From Clostridia bacterium (lineage in GTDB: Bacteria > Bacillota > Clostridia > UBA1381): a stretch of 64,000 bases of DNA. The stretch is taken from the NCBI GenBank assembly GCA_045649825.1, contig JAZRQO010000021.1, positions 6,388 to 70,387 on the forward strand, in the 5' to 3' direction. The notes beneath the pieces are model-generated. The model worked only from the letters and a program-made list of their open reading frames with translations. It was not told the origin of the DNA and made no database searches. The translations under genes and the position numbers were made by a program. The first letter of the stretch is position 1. Each line of letters opens with the position of its first letter. Of the stretch, positions 5,683-12,477 are shown in pieces.

Positions 5683-7695
5683 TTATTCAGGGAAGCCTTC
5701 CGGCACTAGCTGCGTCCATATATTGGGGGCGCCAAGGTTTGGTGTTTTGTCCCAACCTATATATTTTCCGTAAAACTCATTACTTCTGTTTTCTTCATCA
5801 AACAAATCGTTATACTGAAGATTCTCGTATCGGTTTATCCACTCTGCTTCTATACCTGTTGCTTCGCTGTATTTTGCAAATCCGTTTTTTGAAATTGAAT
5901 AATAACCCATAGCATTCATAGCAGGAATAACTCTTTCAAGTGATGATAAAAAGCTATGGTATGACGGCATTTCAATGCCTGCAACTTCAAGCAATCTGCT
6001 TGATAGGAAGTTTAGACTTGTACACTCCACCGTATCCTCAGGTATGTCATAATTTGCCCATATGAAGAATGGAACCTTATATTTCAACATCTGTTGGTCG
6101 AGTGTTTCAAAGGGGCCGCCGTGAAGCTCGTCATAAAACTCAGTTTCTATTTTCGGGAAATGGTCGCCAAAGAACAAAACGATAGTATCTTCGGGATAGT
6201 TCTCAAGCTCCGTAAGGAGATACTCCACTGCCGAGTCCGTTTCCTTTATAACAGAAAAATACTGTTCGGCTTTTGGGTATTCACGGCTGTAACCTTCAAG
6301 CTCTACGGTTTGAATATAGTTTTCACCTTCATAGGTGTATCCGCCGTGGTTTTGCATTGTTACGCCAAAGAGAAACATGGGTTTGTCCTTTTCTTTGGTT
6401 TGGAACTTATTCATTACATACTCAAACATTTCGCGGTCGCTTACATATTTACGAAGCATGTTAAAGCCGGGATAGCTATCTATAAAAGTACTTTCGGAAA
6501 ATCCCATTTTAGGATACAGTGTATCCCTTGACCATCCGTCTGCATAGTAAGGGTGAGTTGCTATGCTTTTATATCCGTAATAATTAAGAAGCCATGCGAG
6601 AGTATATATTTCCCCGCCTATATGCTGCTGATAGGGCACTGAGTTTTCGGGGAGAAACGCCATGGAATGACCTGTCAGCACTTCAAATTCAGAGTTGGCA
6701 GTATTAGCTCCGTATACTGAGGCCAGAGCATAGCCTCTTATTGTGTTCTCACGAAGTGAATCCATAAAGGGGGTTATGGGAATATTTGAGGTTATTTCTT
6801 TATTTCCGATTACACGGAAATCTGCAAAGGATTCATCCATAATAATTATAATATTGGGAAGGTCCTCAGATTTTATATTCACAGGCTCGTATTCGTTTTC
6901 ATAAACCTGTATGGTATGGGGTCCGTAATTGTCAGGCTCATTGATAAACGAATCTCTCACGCCCATAAAAAAGTTAAGGAAGTAGCCGTTCTTTTCAGTA
7001 CCCTGAGTTTCCCACATTTTTATAGGTACATTTATTGTTCCTACCCAGATTATCATAAAATATACGATAGCCAAAGTAAGTGATGTAAGACGCGCTCTCT
7101 TATTCGGGAGCTTTGGAAGCTTTGGAATAAACGTATGCGCAAAAGCCGCAATGCCCCACAAAAGCCATGAAAATACCATTCCCGATGTTAAATTAAGTTC
7201 ATACTGGCCTGCAACATTAAAAGCCGTGCCGATGGATGCAAAATCCATTGGTCCGAGTTCTTTACCACGGAACTGATATATAAATCCGTTTGCCATACAC
7301 AAGAATGCAAGAGCAAAGGTTGTTACCACATTTGAAAGCTTCCATCTTGCAGTAAAGGCAAAAACAACATTTACAAGCATATACACGCAAAGAAGATTGA
7401 GAAAGGTTTTATACGGACCTACCTGATGGAGATTTCCCGAACAAAGCATACTAACAGTAATGCAAAATGTTATGGACACCAAAGCTATGCTCCACACATA
7501 GTTAAGCATAAAGCGTGCAATTCTCGGGAGTTTTTTTAGCTTAAAACAACCAACTCCCACAAACAGAATAGCAAATATAATTCCTGTATACCAGTTAATC
7601 CGCCACCAGCCTGCAACTAATGCAACTGCCGCAAGTATAATACCGATTATTCTGTTTTTCTCATCAAATGTAAGCAAAGATTTCAGTTTGTTCAT
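5683..7695 (-). CDS. LTA synthase (LtaS) / sulfatase-family membrane protein
   Basis: The N-terminal part has multiple predicted TM segments. The C-terminal part is an extracellular sulfatase-type domain (IIIIMDESFADF, FFGDHFP). Confidence 0.75.
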   Translation of the reverse strand: MNKLKSLLTFDEKNRIIGIILAAVALVAGWWRINWYTGIIFAILFVGVGCFKLKKLPRIARFMLNYVWSIALVSITFCITVSMLCSGNLHQVGPYKTFLNLLCVYMLVNVVFAFTARWKLSNVVTTFALAFLCMANGFIYQFRGKELGPMDFASIGTAFNVAGQYELNLTSGMVFSWLLWGIAAFAHTFIPKLPKLPNKRARLTSLTLAIVYFMIIWVGTINVPIKMWETQGTEKNGYFLNFFMGVRDSFINEPDNYGPHTIQVYENEYEPVNIKSEDLPNIIIIMDESFADFRVIGNKEITSNIPITPFMDSLRENTIRGYALASVYGANTANSEFEVLTGHSMAFLPENSVPYQQHIGGEIYTLAWLLNYYGYKSIATHPYYADGWSRDTLYPKMGFSESTFIDSYPGFNMLRKYVSDREMFEYVMNKFQTKEKDKPMFLFGVTMQNHGGYTYEGENYIQTVELEGYSREYPKAEQYFSVIKETDSAVEYLLTELENYPEDTIVLFFGDHFPKIETEFYDELHGGPFETLDQQMLKYKVPFFIWANYDIPEDTVECTSLNFLSSRLLEVAGIEMPSYHSFLSSLERVIPAMNAMGYYSISKNGFAKYSEATGIEAEWINRYENLQYNDLFDEENRSNEFYGKYIGWDKTPNLGAPNIWTQLVPEGFPE

Positions 7696-7770
7696 CTATA
7701 TTAATCCTTTCGGTGGTATTTCAAAAGTATGTTATGTAAAAAAGCAAAATTTCATCCAAATAAGACGGCT

Positions 7771-8838
7771 TCAGAATTCACCGCTTACAATTTTGTCTAC
7801 AAATTCCTCTATTCGCTTTTCACGGGGCGGAATGCGTGCATCTATCCAATGCTGACGTGATAAATAATATAAAAATGCCGGTCTCAGTTCTTCGCCGTCC
7901 ATACGGAGAGGATGGTATCGTATTCCTCGATAAAGCTCCTTAAATGCCAAATCCACCTCGTTTAAAACGTGCTCCGACTGCATACTGTTATGACTTATTA
8001 TTACTATGAAATGACTGCACCTTTCAATGGCCTTTACTATGGAAGTGGCGTAGTCATTTTCATTCACATTTCTGGGAGCATACCAGACCCTTTTACCCGA
8101 TGCTTCAAGCTTTGCACAGATACTGTCAGCAATGCTTTTATCTGTTGTTGTATAGCTTATAAAAACCAAATCGGCAGAATCATTAGGATGCCCACTATAC
8201 GATAGTTTCTCTTTATGTAACGTATATGAATTTTCAAGTGCCATTGCTATTTTAAATGCATTGCTCTGATTATAGTCAACAAAATTAAACCTTTTTATAT
8301 TTTCATTGGTTTTTAAAAATTCGATACATTCATTGATTATGGGTATAATCGTAATCTCAGGTGAAATTCCCTGACATCCCGCACCTATAAGAGGCATTAC
8401 TACCGACTCGACCTTTATTCCGCTTAAAGAAATCAAACCAAGAAATTTAAAGTAAGCCTTTATCAATGCCAGAATTTCTTTTTCACGATTGCAAGGTTCT
8501 GTATCACACTCATGGCTCATTTCAACACAGGCAATATGCCCCACAGGCAGTGGAGAACTCTTTATTTCTTGCGAAAGCCATAGGTTGCACGTATCTCTCA
8601 AATCAATTTTCGGAACATCTGCCAGAGCTTCTACGTCTATCCCCACAAGGTCAAGTGCTTCGAACATAGTACCGGGAGTGGGTGCATATCCGCCCACAAA
8701 GGCTGAAACAGTAAGAATATCCGTCTGTTCGGGGAAATCCAAAATATTGCAGGAATAAACAGATATTGTTTTCTCACCGTATTTTGTTTGTATATTTACC
8801 GAATGCATAGGATTCACTCTATCACCGCCTCTCCTCAT
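7771..8838 (-). CDS. Macro-like domain / TIR domain fusion protein
   Basis: The C-terminus (approx nt 7834-8172) reads DLVFISYTTTDKSIADSICAKLEASGKRVWYAPRNV...FIVIISHNSMQSEHVLNEVDLAF...HWIDA, a typical bacterial TIR_2 pattern with a candidate catalytic Glu (NE). The N-terminus (approx nt 8224-8772) has macro-like motifs: NILDF..TDILTVSAFVGGY.PTPGTMFEAL and VVMPLIGAGCQGISPE. The start is ambiguous among 8889, 8838 and 8808. I chose 8838, which lies 20 nt after the upstream gene's stop. Confidence 0.75.
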   Translation of the reverse strand: MRRGGDRVNPMHSVNIQTKYGEKTISVYSCNILDFPEQTDILTVSAFVGGYAPTPGTMFEALDLVGIDVEALADVPKIDLRDTCNLWLSQEIKSSPLPVGHIACVEMSHECDTEPCNREKEILALIKAYFKFLGLISLSGIKVESVVMPLIGAGCQGISPEITIIPIINECIEFLKTNENIKRFNFVDYNQSNAFKIAMALENSYTLHKEKLSYSGHPNDSADLVFISYTTTDKSIADSICAKLEASGKRVWYAPRNVNENDYATSIVKAIERCSHFIVIISHNSMQSEHVLNEVDLAFKELYRGIRYHPLRMDGEELRPAFLYYLSRQHWIDARIPPREKRIEEFVDKIVSGEF

Positions 8839-8857
8839 AAGCGTATCTATTGCCCTT

Positions 8858-9235
8858 CTATTCGCCGAGCACAGCTTTAACAAAATCAATTACAATATTT
8901 GCACTGTATACAACTCCCCTTGCTTTACACTCTTCTATTCGGGATGAATGTACCAGTGAGTTTCTTAAACTTCGTATTATATTTATTTCATGACTTATGT
9001 CTGAAGGCAAAGGGGAGTCAGGACCTGCACAAAAGCTCATCACCTTTTGAGGCATCTGACCTGATTTGTAAACTGTACCTCTTATGACTTTATATCCTTT
9101 GTTTATAAGAAACAGTTCCAAAGCTTTTTCGCAAATCATATATACATCTAAAAATGCATTCAGACCCGATTCATCAATACACTGAAGCTTTGACGATAAT
9201 CCCTTTATTGCATCTGCAGCTTCCATATCCTTCAC
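8858..9235 (-). CDS. Small HEPN-superfamily protein (Rx4H motif)
   Basis: The 125-aa protein looks all-helical by composition. It contains IIRSLRNSLVHSS (R91-x4-H96, nt 8948-8965) near the C-terminal helix, as in HEPN/DUF4145-type domains. An AGGAG RBS precedes the ATG. Confidence 0.6.
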   Translation of the reverse strand: MKDMEAADAIKGLSSKLQCIDESGLNAFLDVYMICEKALELFLINKGYKVIRGTVYKSGQMPQKVMSFCAGPDSPLPSDISHEINIIRSLRNSLVHSSRIEECKARGVVYSANIVIDFVKAVLGE

Positions 9236-9271
9236 TCCTATTACAAAGTAAGTAATTTTACAGATATCAAA

Positions 9272-9300
9272 ATTATATCACATTTATATGCTAGTGTCAA
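9272..9300 (-). promoter_or_regulatory. Sigma-A type promoter for the HEPN-TIR cassette
   Basis: The minus strand reads TTGACA (9300-9295), a 17-nt spacer, then TGA-TATAAT (9277-9272), i.e. an extended -10. Confidence 0.65.
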
Positions 9301-9345
9301 ATTTTGTTTTTTTATGTAAATGAAGCTATCATTTTACTAATAGCA

Positions 9346-10707
9346 TTAATTATCATATTGAAGCAGTGCGACTGCTTCGACGTGCACTGTATTCGGGAAC
9401 ATATCAACCGCAGTTACTTTGTCAAGCTTATATCCGCCTTGATTTAGGATTTTTATATCTCTTGCTAAAGTGGCGGGGTTGCAGGATACGTAGACTATTC
9501 TTTTGGGATTTGCAGAGATTATTGTATTGAGAGTGATTTCGTCGCTTCCCTTTCTTGGCGGGTCGATTATAACTATATCGGGTTTTTCGCCGCCTTGAAT
9601 CAACTGAGGTACGATTTTTTCTGCACTTCCTGCATAGAATTCTGCATTTGTAATACCATTGGCTTTGGCATTTTTCTTTGCATCCGCAATTGCCCGGTCT
9701 ACTATTTCAACACCGATTACTTTTTTTGCTTTTTTCGCGGCAGTAAGAGAGATTGTTCCAATTCCGCAGTAAATATCCATTACTGTGTCGGTGTCGCTTA
9801 TATCTGCATATTCTATGGCTTTATTATACAAATTCTCCGTTTGCTCGGGATTTACCTGAAAAAAGCTGTTTGGAGATATTTCGTATTCGCATCCGCAAAG
9901 CGTGTCGGAAATAAATAATTTCCCGAAAACTGTTCGGTTATTGGGACCGAGAACAAGGTTTGTTCTGTCGGGGTTTATGTTAAGAATTATGCTTACAACA
10001 GAACCATCGGCTTGTATAATCTTATCTGCCAATGCTTTTTCATTGGGGAGTGATGAGGTTTTTGAAGATACAACAACCATTGTTTCCCCTGAAAATCTGC
10101 CACGGCGTATGAATATACGGCGCACCGCTCCCTTATGAGCTTCTTCATCATAAGGTTTTACCCTGTTTTCGTTCATATATTCAAGGACTGCATTTATTAT
10201 TTTACCGTCATCACCCATACCGAGCATACATCCGTTTAAAGGAATAATACTGTGGCTTCTCGGTGCATAGAACCCGCAAACCACAGTGCCTGACTTGTCC
10301 GCACCAACAGGATATACCATTTTATTGCGGTATCCCATATCACAGAGAGCAGGAATTAATGATACTTCTGTATCAGGGCTTTGATTTCCAAGTCTGACAA
10401 GGGCGTCGTATACGAATTTTCTCTTGATTTCGCACTGAGCATCATAATTAATATGCATAAGCTGACAGCCACCGCACTTTTTGTACGCAGAACACTCAGG
10501 CACTCTACGGCTCTCGGATGAACTGATGATATTAAGACATTTACCATATGCATATGCAGATTTCACCTTGACTATCAAGGCCTCAATAACATCTCCCTTA
10601 GCCGTAAATGGCACAAAAACAGTCAGACCGTCGTGACGTCCGACGCCCATACCTTCATTTGTTACATCTACGATTTCAAGAGTTACCTTATCATTTTTCT
10701 TAATCAT
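9346..10707 (-). CDS. rlmD: 23S rRNA (uracil-C5)-methyltransferase, RlmD/RumA family
   Basis: TRAM-like N-terminus, a Cys cluster (CxxxxxxCGGC) and a SAM-MTase core (DIYCGIGTISL, IIDPPRKG). Confidence 0.85.
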   Translation of the reverse strand: MIKKNDKVTLEIVDVTNEGMGVGRHDGLTVFVPFTAKGDVIEALIVKVKSAYAYGKCLNIISSSESRRVPECSAYKKCGGCQLMHINYDAQCEIKRKFVYDALVRLGNQSPDTEVSLIPALCDMGYRNKMVYPVGADKSGTVVCGFYAPRSHSIIPLNGCMLGMGDDGKIINAVLEYMNENRVKPYDEEAHKGAVRRIFIRRGRFSGETMVVVSSKTSSLPNEKALADKIIQADGSVVSIILNINPDRTNLVLGPNNRTVFGKLFISDTLCGCEYEISPNSFFQVNPEQTENLYNKAIEYADISDTDTVMDIYCGIGTISLTAAKKAKKVIGVEIVDRAIADAKKNAKANGITNAEFYAGSAEKIVPQLIQGGEKPDIVIIDPPRKGSDEITLNTIISANPKRIVYVSCNPATLARDIKILNQGGYKLDKVTAVDMFPNTVHVEAVALLQYDN

Positions 10708-10772
10708 AATACTTCCTTTAAATAGCATTTTTTAGTGCAAAAGGCGAATGCCTAAGCATCCGCCATTTAATA

Positions 10773-11573
10773 TTAGTCGTTTTCGTGCTCTGCGAGGTAT
10801 TCCTCAAAGCTGCTTACTTTAGCCTTTTCAACACGTCCTCCGCCGGGATATGTTGTGGGTAAATCCTCATCAACAGGATAGTTATACTCTTTCTTGGGAG
10901 CAGGCTTCTTGCTGTAGGAAGGTCTGCGTCTTTCATTCTTGGGAGCAATAACTACCTTACGGTAAGGTTCTTCGCCAACCGAGAATGTTGTCACATCTTC
11001 ATTTGACTGAAGATTTGCATGAATAATTCTTCTTTCATAGGGGTTCATAGGCTCAAGTGTATACTTTTTACCTGTGCGTGCAACCTTATTTGCAAGTCTT
11101 TCAGAAAGAGCCTTGAGAGATTCCTCTCTCTTCTGTCTGTAACCTTCAGTATCGATAGTTACTCTTGTGTAATCATCTCTTGATTTACCTTTGTTTGCAA
11201 CAAGTGATGTAAGATACTGCAAGCTGTCGAGAGTATCGCCTCTTTTACCTATTACAATTCCCATATCCGAGCCTTCGAGCTGGATGTTGAGGTTGCCTTC
11301 ATCCTCAGTTGATGTAATTTCAACCTGCATACCCATTGCCTCAAAAACGTCTGCAAGGAACTTCTCTGCAACATTTCCGTTGTCTGCTGCACCAAGGAGT
11401 TCTACCTCGATTACTGCGTCTTTTGAACCAAGGCCGAGAAAGCCCTTTGATGCTTCTTCCAATACTGTATATTTTACTTCATTTTCAGAAACGCCAAGCT
11501 CTTCAAGAGCGAGGGTAAGTGCTTCTTCAATGCTTTTTGCGCTTTTTGTTATTTTTTTCGGGGAGTTTGACAT
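10773..11573 (-). CDS. jag: RNA-binding protein Jag/KhpB (Jag_N-KH-R3H)
   Basis: KSIEEALTLALEELGVSENEV at the N-terminus and an R3H-type C-terminus (ERRIIHANL). It overlaps the 3' end of yidC. Confidence 0.85.
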   Translation of the reverse strand: MSNSPKKITKSAKSIEEALTLALEELGVSENEVKYTVLEEASKGFLGLGSKDAVIEVELLGAADNGNVAEKFLADVFEAMGMQVEITSTEDEGNLNIQLEGSDMGIVIGKRGDTLDSLQYLTSLVANKGKSRDDYTRVTIDTEGYRQKREESLKALSERLANKVARTGKKYTLEPMNPYERRIIHANLQSNEDVTTFSVGEEPYRKVVIAPKNERRRPSYSKKPAPKKEYNYPVDEDLPTTYPGGGRVEKAKVSSFEEYLAEHEND

Positions 11574-12477
11574 CAAAATCGTCACCTTTCTTATCAAAGT
11601 AATAATTGAGTGCTACCTGCTGAACAAACTGCATAACACTGCTGATTATCCAGTAAAGTCCCATACCTGAGGGAAGAATGAATGTAAAATAACCTGTCAT
11701 AATAGGCATAATAATATTCATCGAGCTGGTCATCTGCTGTGCTTGTTCGTTTGCCGCACTATTGGCTGATTTGTTCTGGCCCTGCATATACTTTGAACTG
11801 AGCCATGTTGTGAGAACTGCCAATACAGGGATAAGTATAAGTAACACTATGCTGAGATTGCTGAAATCACCGTTCATAATAGGTGATATTGCAGCTGAGG
11901 GCTTCTGAGAAAGGTCAAGACCAAGAAAATCGAAGTTAAGCACCCAGTCAAGCTGTTCGCCAAGCGCTGAACACCATTTTGAAAGAGTTATCTGCCCCAT
12001 CTTGATAATATTTGAAGGCTCTGCTCCTGCATATTCACCAAGGAGTGCGGGGAATGTTTCCGCAATCTTATCTCTCAAAGTAGCCACAATCTGAAGCTTG
12101 TCCTCGCTCCAGTCGGTTACACCGGCAATGTATGTGATAGGTCGCTGAATTACGTGATAAAGACCGATGAGTATAGGCATCTGTATAAGCATAGGAAGGC
12201 ATCCGCCTGCCATACTCACATTGTTTTCTTTATATACCTTCATCATCTCTCGCTGAAGCTTTTCTTTATCGTTTGCATACTTTGCCTGAAGCTGTGCAAT
12301 GATAGGCTGAATTTTCTGCTGCTTTCTCATTGCTTTCTGTGATTTAATATTGAGGGGTAATAATATAAGCTTAACCACTATGGTAAAAAGTATAATTGCA
12401 AGGCCGTAGTTCTGCACAAGCTCATAAATAAACCCAATAATAAATCCAAGAGGTCTTTTAATCAAAAATTCGTACAT
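11527..12477 (-). CDS. yidC: Membrane protein insertase YidC/SpoIIIJ
   Basis: YidC/Oxa1 core motifs (GCLPMLIQMPI, GMGLYW) and a lysine-rich C-terminal tail. Confidence 0.9.
   Translation of the reverse strand: MYEFLIKRPLGFIIGFIYELVQNYGLAIILFTIVVKLILLPLNIKSQKAMRKQQKIQPIIAQLQAKYANDKEKLQREMMKVYKENNVSMAGGCLPMLIQMPILIGLYHVIQRPITYIAGVTDWSEDKLQIVATLRDKIAETFPALLGEYAGAEPSNIIKMGQITLSKWCSALGEQLDWVLNFDFLGLDLSQKPSAAISPIMNGDFSNLSIVLLILIPVLAVLTTWLSSKYMQGQNKSANSAANEQAQQMTSSMNIIMPIMTGYFTFILPSGMGLYWIISSVMQFVQQVALNYYFDKKGDDFDVKLPEKNNKKRKKH

Follow-up and report, generated by a model that had tools for sequence, protein, structure and literature searches.

What does a bacterial protein do when it joins a macro-like domain to a TIR domain in a single chain? 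The question is raised by a gene on the minus strand of a 64,000-nucleotide stretch of a Clostridia bacterium contig (JAZRQO010000021.1), which is called the window here. TIR enzymes and macro domains are central to immune signaling by nicotinamide adenine dinucleotide (NAD) and ADP-ribose (ADPR) from bacteria to humans, and to our knowledge the two have so far been known to cooperate only as separate proteins, for example in type II Thoeris. As read from the sequences of its family, the same macro-like domain is coupled to three toxic enzymes, namely a TIR NAD-cleaving enzyme (NADase), a DUF4145 HEPN RNase and an ADP-ribosyltransferase (ART). We tentatively take this domain as a sensor that would control whichever toxin is attached to it.

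Two domains in one polypeptide

The gene lies within a minus-strand open reading frame (ORF) at 7771-8889 (372 aa) in the ORF list of the window. A first-pass annotation, made from the sequence, had placed macro-like and TIR domains in one polypeptide here, and all the peptide strings quoted in it are present in this ORF. Residue numbers below refer to the 348-aa protein unless stated otherwise; the spans of PADLOC matches use the 372-aa ORF, and E284 belongs to a 345-aa numbering. The gene and the parts of its product are as follows.

7771-8817, minus strand: complete macro-like-TIR gene, 348 aa and stop, with start codon GTG at 8817
8209-8817, minus strand: divergent macro domain, aa 1-203
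8170-8208, minus strand: linker between the macro-like domain and the TIR, approximately aa 204-216, with predicted local distance difference test (pLDDT) values down to 50-67
7828-8166, minus strand: TIR domain (Pfam TIR_2), aa 218-330

When the sequence is read, GAGGAGAGG stands before the GTG start at 8817. This start agrees with the N-termini of 39 homologs, as family N-termini align as M-N-P-M-H-S, and the 99% identical protein P0001 (348 aa) is called from the GTG start on three near-identical metagenome contigs. In the family, mean pairwise identity rises from 11% in the linker to 46% in the macro-like domain and 66% in the TIR.

Divergent macro fold of the N-terminal domain

With the single sequence, Pfam Macro (PF01661) gives E 0.084 and 13.3 bits, which is under the 22-bit cutoff, and the match covers profile positions 70-113 only. 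The fold was examined with AlphaFold2 (AF2) models. The domain alone is modeled with pLDDT 91.6 and a predicted template modeling score (pTM) of 0.89, and the model shows the three-layer alpha/beta/alpha macro fold with its characteristic mixed sheet and element order (b1-b2 hairpin, b3, a1, a2, b4, b5, b6, a3, b7, a4, b8, a5). When the domain model is searched against the PDB with Foldseek, the top 50 matches are all macro domains, some of them in fusion constructs, with E down to 4e-9, query-normalized TM-scores (TMq) of 0.60-0.72 and target-normalized scores (TMt) up to 0.78. They include macroH2A1.1/1.2, an Oceanobacillus macrodomain with ADPR, PARP9/14/15, YmdB, MacroD2, TTHA0132 and Af1521. 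Among the viral models of BFVD, the matches are macro domains of alphaviruses, rubella, coronaviruses and giant viruses.

Sequence profiles lead to the same superfamily. A narrow profile of close homologs matches PARP14 at 3e-4. A broad profile of the N-terminal domain (A5, 40 sequences), run against PDB sequences at E<=10, gives 32 matches, 30 of which are macro-domain chains, the best being PARP14 (7e-7), TTHA0132 (1.2e-5) and macroH2A1.1 (4e-4). Comparison of the family by hhalign with YmdB plus one canonical macro gives a probability of 77%, and IMG labels one sister-clade member (P0216) as ‘O-acetyl-ADP-ribose deacetylase’. Judged by modeled fold and profile statistics, the N-terminal domain belongs to the macro superfamily. 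Membership in Pfam Macro or among the MacroD hydrolases was rejected, because the score is below threshold and the catalytic residues are missing, as described below.

Macro motifs kept and lost

Two segments of the domain correspond to the best-known macro motifs.

8698-8745, minus strand: counterpart of GDIT...D-x-I-V-N-A-A-N, reading N25-I-L-D-F-P-E-Q-T-D33-I-L-T-V-S38-A-F40
8371-8394, minus strand: counterpart of diphosphate-binding loop 2, reading P142-L-I-G145-A-G147-C-Q149

In hidden Markov model (HMM) alignments, the family block s-i-e-v-y-n-g-D-I-t...D-i-l-v aligns to YmdB residues 4-21 (R-I-H-V-V-Q-G-D-I-T-K-L-A-V-D-V-I-V) and also to TTHA0132, and the consensus of the wider family literally spells G-D-I-T. 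D33 and S38 are invariant in the family. Counted on from the aligned GDIT block, the position of catalytic N25 of YmdB is occupied by F40. By motif inference (G-T-L-I-G-A-L versus G-G-V-D-G-A-I), the position of catalytic D35 is occupied by F52, and I or F stands there across the family. The Gly-rich loop 1 (G-G-G) is replaced by Y44-x-P46-x2-G-T. Since the profile-profile alignment to YmdB spans the C-terminal half only, the mapping of the N-terminal motifs is based on a weak HMM alignment together with motif reasoning.

In the C-terminal half, the loop P142-L-I-G145-A-G147-C-Q149-G aligns with YmdB P-A-I-S-T-G-V-Y-G and also with PARP14, TTHA0132, macroH2A1.1 and PARP9, and its P, G, G and Q hardly vary in either the TIR or the HEPN clade. 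The last strand, F-N-F-V-D-Y, aligns with YmdB V-Y-F-V-C-Y. The family also has near-invariant polar residues of its own, which are Y44, D72, W80, S82, C97, E99 and Q149. No TARG1/DarG-type motif was seen in the macro-like domain. Because the YmdB N25 and D35 positions are hydrophobic and GGG is replaced, the MacroD-type hydrolase machinery is absent, while the framework of the nucleotide cleft is partly kept.

The C-terminal TIR domain

Pfam TIR_2 matches the C-terminal domain with 72 bits against a cutoff of 28 (E 6e-20), and Pfam TIR matches it with 22.8 bits against a cutoff of 21.3 (E 9e-5). Its sequence matches in the PDB are TLR1, a TIR-STING fusion, Cat1, SARM1/TIR-1 and SpbK, and Foldseek matches the TIR part to the MapSPARTA TIR. 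The predicted active site can be located by alignment.

7957-7959, minus strand: codon of the predicted catalytic Glu, E287, in the motif S-E-H-V-L-N-E-V-D-L

E287 (E284 in the 345-aa numbering) is invariant among 40 homologs. The stretch S-E-H-V-L-N-E287-V-D-L aligns with TLR1 S-E-W-C-H-Y-E-L-Y-F, which puts E287 on the TLR1 Glu; the W-C-x-x-E-L position bears the catalytic Glu of plant TIRs and E642 of SARM1. By these alignments, the domain is a member of the TIR_2 family that keeps an intact catalytic Glu. The TIR is also unusually conserved in the family, with invariant motifs off the catalytic site (W-Y-A-P-R-[DN], Y-Y-L-S-R-Q-H-W and P-P-x-E-x-R-L) that may serve as oligomer interfaces or influence the substrate or product.

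Much of this had been anticipated by the first-pass annotation. The region that it took for macro-like (8224-8772, aa 16-198) has Foldseek matches to macro domains throughout the top 50 and a profile match at 7e-7, and the region that it took for TIR (7834-8170, aa 216-328) is covered by TIR_2 at E 6e-20, with the catalytic Glu that it called for present as E287 and invariant in 40 homologs. The motif pairs that it proposed are those that the profiles align, namely SVVMPLIGAGCQG with SVAFPAISTGVYG, FNFVDY with VYFVCY, and the GDIT/D block with YmdB GDIT..VDVIV. Its suggestion that several catalytic macro positions are substituted agrees with the mapping as well, in which N25 and D35 of YmdB fall on F40 and F52.

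A populous family with exchangeable effectors

The fusion had been regarded as unusual, and in this respect the earlier view had to be given up. The full-length protein has 357 homologs at E<=1e-3. The best 120 of the 357 are nearly all 335-395 aa long with 95-100% query coverage and 45-60% identity, the window species' own copy excepted, and where they are named they are labeled only ‘TIR domain-containing protein’. The fusion is therefore a populous family of approximately 350 aa, and its N-terminal domain extends much further: when 1.84 billion representatives are searched with a profile of this domain only, 906 clusters (50% identity) reach E<=1e-3, and 620 reach E<=1e-10. The close family resides in about 45 metagenome-assembled genomes of ruminant and other animal guts (species-representative genomes). 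Its hosts are patchily distributed over Clostridia (Oscillospiraceae, Ruminococcus, Lachnospiraceae and Acutalibacteraceae), Solobacterium, and Coriobacteriales/Atopobiaceae (Coriobacteriia), and such a cross-phylum spread is compatible with horizontal transfer.

What follows the macro-like domain varies. Among 122 long family members, TIR_2 is present in 62 and DUF4145 in 48. DUF4145 is a HEPN RNase family (PMC3710099), and it is the catalytic RNase domain of the single-protein defense RAZR (PMC13017515). The HEPN motif R-x2-G-N-x3-H is found in 57 of 148 representatives among the matches listed. A third effector is carried by a 396-aa ‘hypothetical protein’ of a Ralstonia solanacearum megaplasmid (BCL95478.1; AP024100.1; L065:4947-6134), in which the macro-like N-terminal domain (hhalign probability 99%, E 3e-18) is joined to ADPrib_exo_Tox (PF03496, E 5.5e-6). 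Its loop 2 reads P-L-V-S-T-G-S-A-G, nearer to the canonical macro loop.

D33, S38, Y44, D72, W80, S82, C97, E99, P142, G145, G147 and Q149 are conserved whatever effector is attached. This conservation argues for a biochemical function in the macro cleft that is independent of the effector. A constant sensor with variable effectors is the pattern also of SAVED, STING, CARF and SLOG.

Next to the Ralstonia protein stand a giant protein without annotation, one with DUF6508 and a calcineurin-like phosphoesterase. The Ralstonia match to the N-terminal domain recurs in 126 Ralstonia plasmid records. The ART clade is otherwise small (8 hits), its other members being 244-337 aa long with C-termini that have no Pfam match.

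In the TIR clade, variants add parts at the N-terminus while the macro-like-TIR core remains contiguous. The added parts are a canonical Macro domain (P0218, PF01661 2.4e-30), DUF1810 (P0146), zinc ribbons or unannotated extensions. P0186, P0215, P0217, P0253 and P0219 have N-terminal extensions of 120-250 aa without a Pfam match, and that of P0186 is similar to those of P0253 and P0215, while P0219 has a weak, sub-threshold WXG100 match (E 8e-4). These extensions could be delivery modules or extra sensor modules.

No partner gene

Partner genes were sought by calling flanking ORFs and clustering their proteins in 41 loci, and by running Pfam and PADLOC on the 147 flanking proteins of 44 loci. 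No neighbor gene is conserved across the 44 loci, as similarity clusters of flanking proteins span at most three loci, and the 147 proteins match 150 Pfam families, none of them more than twice. No thsA-like partner gene was found in these loci either, and in its organization the protein is unlike Thoeris. Members of the HEPN clade likewise stand alone.

A minority of the flanking genes are of defense type, with matches to TIR-WD40, MazG-like plus SLFN-type helicase, mad, PDC-S09, AriA, AbiO and Nhi. Two members have another large TIR protein within a few kb (TIR-WD40, 740 aa, L008:3127-5349; TIR_2, 779 aa, L004:15548-17062), and TIR_2 was seen twice among the 147 flanking genes. At L066:3197-5910, the HEPN-clade member P0216 stands directly downstream of a defense-type pair of SIR2_2 and nSTAND1 genes. 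DUF1810 is a direct neighbor in 2 of the 44 loci, besides its fusion in P0146. No function is on record for it and, as far as we know, very few papers deal with it; its association may be a lead to an NAD- or ADPR-related role.

PADLOC v2 matches to the protein are confined to the TIR, at aa approximately 227-354 in the 372-aa ORF; none of its models represents the macro-like domain, there is no ThsA match, and HEPN-clade members are without any match in it. No family member was found in IMG/VR, and the sole match among GenBank phages covers the TIR alone. The plasmid matches are the ART relative of the Ralstonia megaplasmid. No description of the macro-TIR architecture was found in the searchable literature; an earlier mention may stand in Burroughs et al. 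2015 (Nucleic Acids Research), the likeliest place for it.

Proposed mechanism

A constant N-terminal domain, swappable toxins, no partner gene, patchy spread and occasional placement among defense genes together make the signature of a single-protein abortive-infection sensor-effector. We propose that the protein acts in the cytoplasm as such a stand-alone system, in which the macro-like domain would bind an ADPR-like ligand, self-associate and switch on the TIR NADase so that NAD+ is depleted. We hold this reading tentatively, at a little less than even confidence.

In detail, the N-terminal domain would be a catalytically disabled macro that serves as a regulatory and sensing module, and an ADPR-like nucleotide would be bound in the conserved macro cleft. 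Going by sequence motifs, the general part of this putative cleft would consist of the GDIT-like strand end, D33, S38, Y44-x-P46 and the P142-x2-G145-x-G147-x-Q149 loop, and the family-specific part of D72/R74, W80/S82 and C97/E99. Ligand binding would lead to self-association of the protein, by which the C-terminal TIRs are brought together. A composite active site around E287 would then form and cleave NAD+, and its depletion would stop growth and phage replication. In the sister clades, the same switch would turn on the DUF4145 HEPN RNase or the ART. The ligand could come from phage ADP-ribosylation or NAD metabolism, from the products of other NADase defenses, or from the TIR itself, whose own ADPR would give positive feedback.

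Ligand-driven self-association was chosen as the mechanism because of what the effectors need and because of a macro precedent. TIR NADases need dimers or oligomers for their composite active sites; STING-TIR and SAVED-TIR oligomerize solely upon ligand binding, and the ARM domain keeps SARM1 off (PMC11204291). Active sites of HEPN are composite dimers as well (PMC13017515). Oligomerization of macro-containing ThsA of type II Thoeris is triggered by histidine-conjugated ADPR (PMC12847820).

A bolder version of the proposal is that the N-terminal domain represents a new class of immune sensor, a hydrolase-dead macro that detects an ADPR-type ‘danger’ molecule without a dedicated synthase gene and fires any toxin attached to it. 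We consider this version doubtful. Candidates for the danger molecule would be products of phage ADP-ribosyltransferases or NAD-salvage pathways, and ADPR from any other NADase defense. In the TIR version, the ADPR that the enzyme itself makes could act back on the sensor, resulting in an all-or-none collapse of NAD+.

Several observations count against the proposed sensor-effector mechanism. Conservation is lower in the macro-like domain than in the TIR (46% versus 66% mean identity), and most neighborhoods of the family are housekeeping ones rather than defense islands. The AF2 model of the full-length protein has pLDDT 87.6 and a pTM of only 0.68, so the arrangement of the two domains is not fixed by the model. 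The N-terminal half of the domain has been mapped onto the canonical macro motifs through weak local alignments. Neither the GGG loop 1 nor the adenine-stacking aromatic after the last strand is conserved, the latter position being Y in the window protein and R in many members. With a non-canonical loop 1 and adenine position, the ligand may be something other than ADPR, or a small ligand may not be involved at all.

Alternative explanations

The macro fold could have been co-opted for protein recognition, so that it binds a structural or replication protein of a phage directly and releases or assembles the TIR without any nucleotide ligand. SpbK, triggered by YonE (PMC12847820), and RAZR, triggered by ring and portal proteins of phages (PMC13017515), are precedents for such recognition, and the greater variability of the N-terminal domain relative to the TIR, as well as the non-canonical loop 1 and adenine-stacking position, would fit it. 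On the other hand, the residues conserved across clades cluster in the nucleotide-cleft motifs (GDIT/D block, P-x2-G-x-G loop and Q149), and a dozen polar residues conserved across Clostridia, Acidobacteriota and Ralstonia would not be expected of surfaces that track fast-evolving phage proteins, which makes direct recognition unlikely. The protein could instead generate a signal as ThsB does, with the TIR making a messenger such as cyclic ADPR or an ADPR conjugate, the macro-like domain being a sensor or product-binding regulator, and the effector being unlinked. ThsB models of PADLOC match the TIR part weakly, and the TIR part in relatives more strongly; bacterial TIRs often produce signals, and control of the enzyme by what it makes, an idea of the first-pass annotation, would suit this arrangement. 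But neither a thsA-like gene nor any other conserved neighbor was found in the 44 loci, and sister clades put toxins (HEPN RNase, ART) in the place of the TIR, which speaks for an effector rather than a signal-making role of the C-terminal domain. We regard a ThsB-like generator as quite unlikely.

The macro-like domain may also be an enzyme acting in cis, which hydrolyzes or edits the TIR product or reverses ADP-ribosylation as an antidote in the manner of DarG-DarT or macro-SirTM. Macro domains are commonly paired with NAD-using enzymes, and the Ralstonia member pairs this one with an ART; the near-invariant C97/E99, D72 and Q149 could even make a new active site. The canonical Macro domain that P0218 has in front of its core can be read in two ways, as one more such pairing or as a sign that the divergent domain lacks that activity. 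However, F40 and F/I52 occupy the positions of catalytic N25 and D35 of MacroD/YmdB, nothing of the TARG1/DarG type was seen, and hydrolysis of an ADPR derivative would neither restore NAD+ nor undo RNA cleavage, leaving the TIR and HEPN fusions unexplained. Product hydrolysis or reversal of ADP-ribosylation was thus the least likely of the ideas in the first-pass annotation, as the MacroD pair has been lost and a HEPN RNase is found behind the same domain too, and we give an enzyme in cis only a slim chance. Far less credible is export, with the module serving a polymorphic-toxin or secretion system as an NADase toxin that the macro-like domain holds inactive before delivery. The long N-terminal extensions of some relatives, with the weak WXG100 match of P0219, and the giant protein next to the ART-fused member on the Ralstonia megaplasmid would be in line with export, but the window protein and nearly all its close homologs are approximately 350 aa long with no delivery extension before the macro-like domain, and no immunity gene is conserved downstream. 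On the evidence of domain swaps, ligand-controlled regulation of the effector is favored; for the macro-like domain, a binding rather than a hydrolytic role is the favored idea.

Surroundings of the gene in the window

Two further features lie upstream of the macro-TIR gene.

8858-9226, minus strand: orphan ORF of 122 aa that immediately precedes the macro-TIR gene on the same strand, with a 41-nt gap
9272-9300, minus strand: predicted sigma-70 promoter with extended consensus (TTGACA, 17 nt, TG-n-TATAAT), 12/12 in the promoter scan, a consensus match only

The predicted promoter stands upstream of both the orphan ORF and the macro-TIR gene, and no terminator-like site was found between the two in the scanned region 7500-9600. 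The 12/12 promoter and the lack of a terminator-like site in that region suggest strong constitutive transcription of the pair, and the orphan ORF is probably co-transcribed with the macro-TIR gene. Whether it is part of the same system is doubtful. Its sole homolog is the copy in its own species, it has no family match in Pfam, PADLOC or NCBIfam, and an ORF of similar size in locus L008 is unrelated to it. It bears the string I-R-S-L-R-N-S-L-V-H, reminiscent of the DUF4145/HEPN motif R-x2-G-N-x3-H of the sister clade. A role as a HEPN partner is nonetheless unsupported, since its hhalign probability against the DUF4145 alignment is just 5.8% and family matches are lacking.

Other neighbors in the window are, on one side, a gene for a TrmA/RumA-family (tRNA_U5-meth_tr) RNA uracil methyltransferase, jag, yidC and rnpA, and on the other side a gene for a sulfatase-family membrane protein. 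The tRNA_U5-meth_tr gene, jag and yidC occupy 9346-12477 (minus strand) and beyond, and rnpA was seen on the matching contig L001. jag, yidC and rnpA with such a methyltransferase gene form the usual origin-proximal cluster. The cumulative GC skew declines almost monotonically over the entire 64-kb window. In the unrelated locus L004, as in the window, the macro-TIR gene is downstream of a tRNA_U5-meth_tr family gene; this adjacency is probably coincidental, since it is common to only 3 loci.

Significance and comparison with known systems

If the module is a ligand-gated switch, macro would join the short list of sensor folds that includes STING, SAVED, CARF, SLOG and ARM. Such a switch would also point to an infection signal without a dedicated synthase, and it would provide a compact two-domain system for studying activation of TIR NADases. 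The family is abundant in animal-gut Firmicutes and is without a domain model or an entry in defense databases; hundreds of its genes now bear the generic names ‘TIR domain-containing protein’ or ‘DUF4145 domain-containing protein’.

Among known systems, ThsA of type II Thoeris (transmembrane-macro) also uses a macro as a regulatory or sensing module in a bacterial immune pathway of NAD and TIR (PMC12847820, PMC11204291). In Thoeris, however, a membrane effector carries the macro of ThsA, and the TIR (ThsB), which makes the ligand, has a separate, adjacent gene of its own, whereas here macro-like domain and TIR form one chain, no partner is conserved, PADLOC finds no ThsA and the domain is below the Pfam Macro cutoff. 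Thoeris of types I-IV has thsB (TIR) next to an effector gene of thsA type, such as SIR2-SLOG, TM-Macro or caspase-like ones. Membership in Thoeris was rejected, as there is no conserved partner gene and PADLOC gives generic TIR matches only.

TIR-STING, TIR-SAVED (of CBASS or type III CRISPR) and SARM1 (ARM-SAM-TIR) have a sensor and a TIR in one chain as the window protein would, and theirs is an oligomerization-dependent NADase. In its way of working, the protein would be closest to these three and to the macro of ThsA. The three differ in that the sensor here has a macro fold instead of STING, SAVED or ARM, and no cognate cyclase gene accompanies it. SpbK (TIR) and RAZR/PD-T7-4 (Zn-finger plus DUF4145 HEPN) resemble the family in being stand-alone, with an N-terminal domain recognizing the trigger and a C-terminal TIR or DUF4145 toxin, and the DUF4145 HEPN domain of the sister clade shares with RAZR the R...H motif spacing. 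Their N-terminal domains are not macros and are triggered by phage proteins, whereas motifs of a nucleotide cleft are kept here.

The canonical macros (MacroD/YmdB/Af1521, macroH2A1.1 and PARP9/14/15) share the fold, the element order (TM-score 0.7-0.78), the GDIT/D block and the P-x-[IL]-[SG]-x-G loop with the domain. Identity to them is 12-18%, GGG and the N25/D35 pair are replaced, and the family has near-invariant residues of its own. DarT-DarG, SirTM-macro and PARP14 are alike in coupling a macro-type domain physically to an NAD+-consuming enzyme, as does the Ralstonia relative with its ART. Their macro is an active hydrolase that reverses the modification, whereas hydrolase residues are missing here and the commonest partners are TIR and HEPN. 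Against these systems, the family is best read as a sensor-effector immune protein with a macro-type sensor that had not been modeled before: its kind would be known, and its sensor new.

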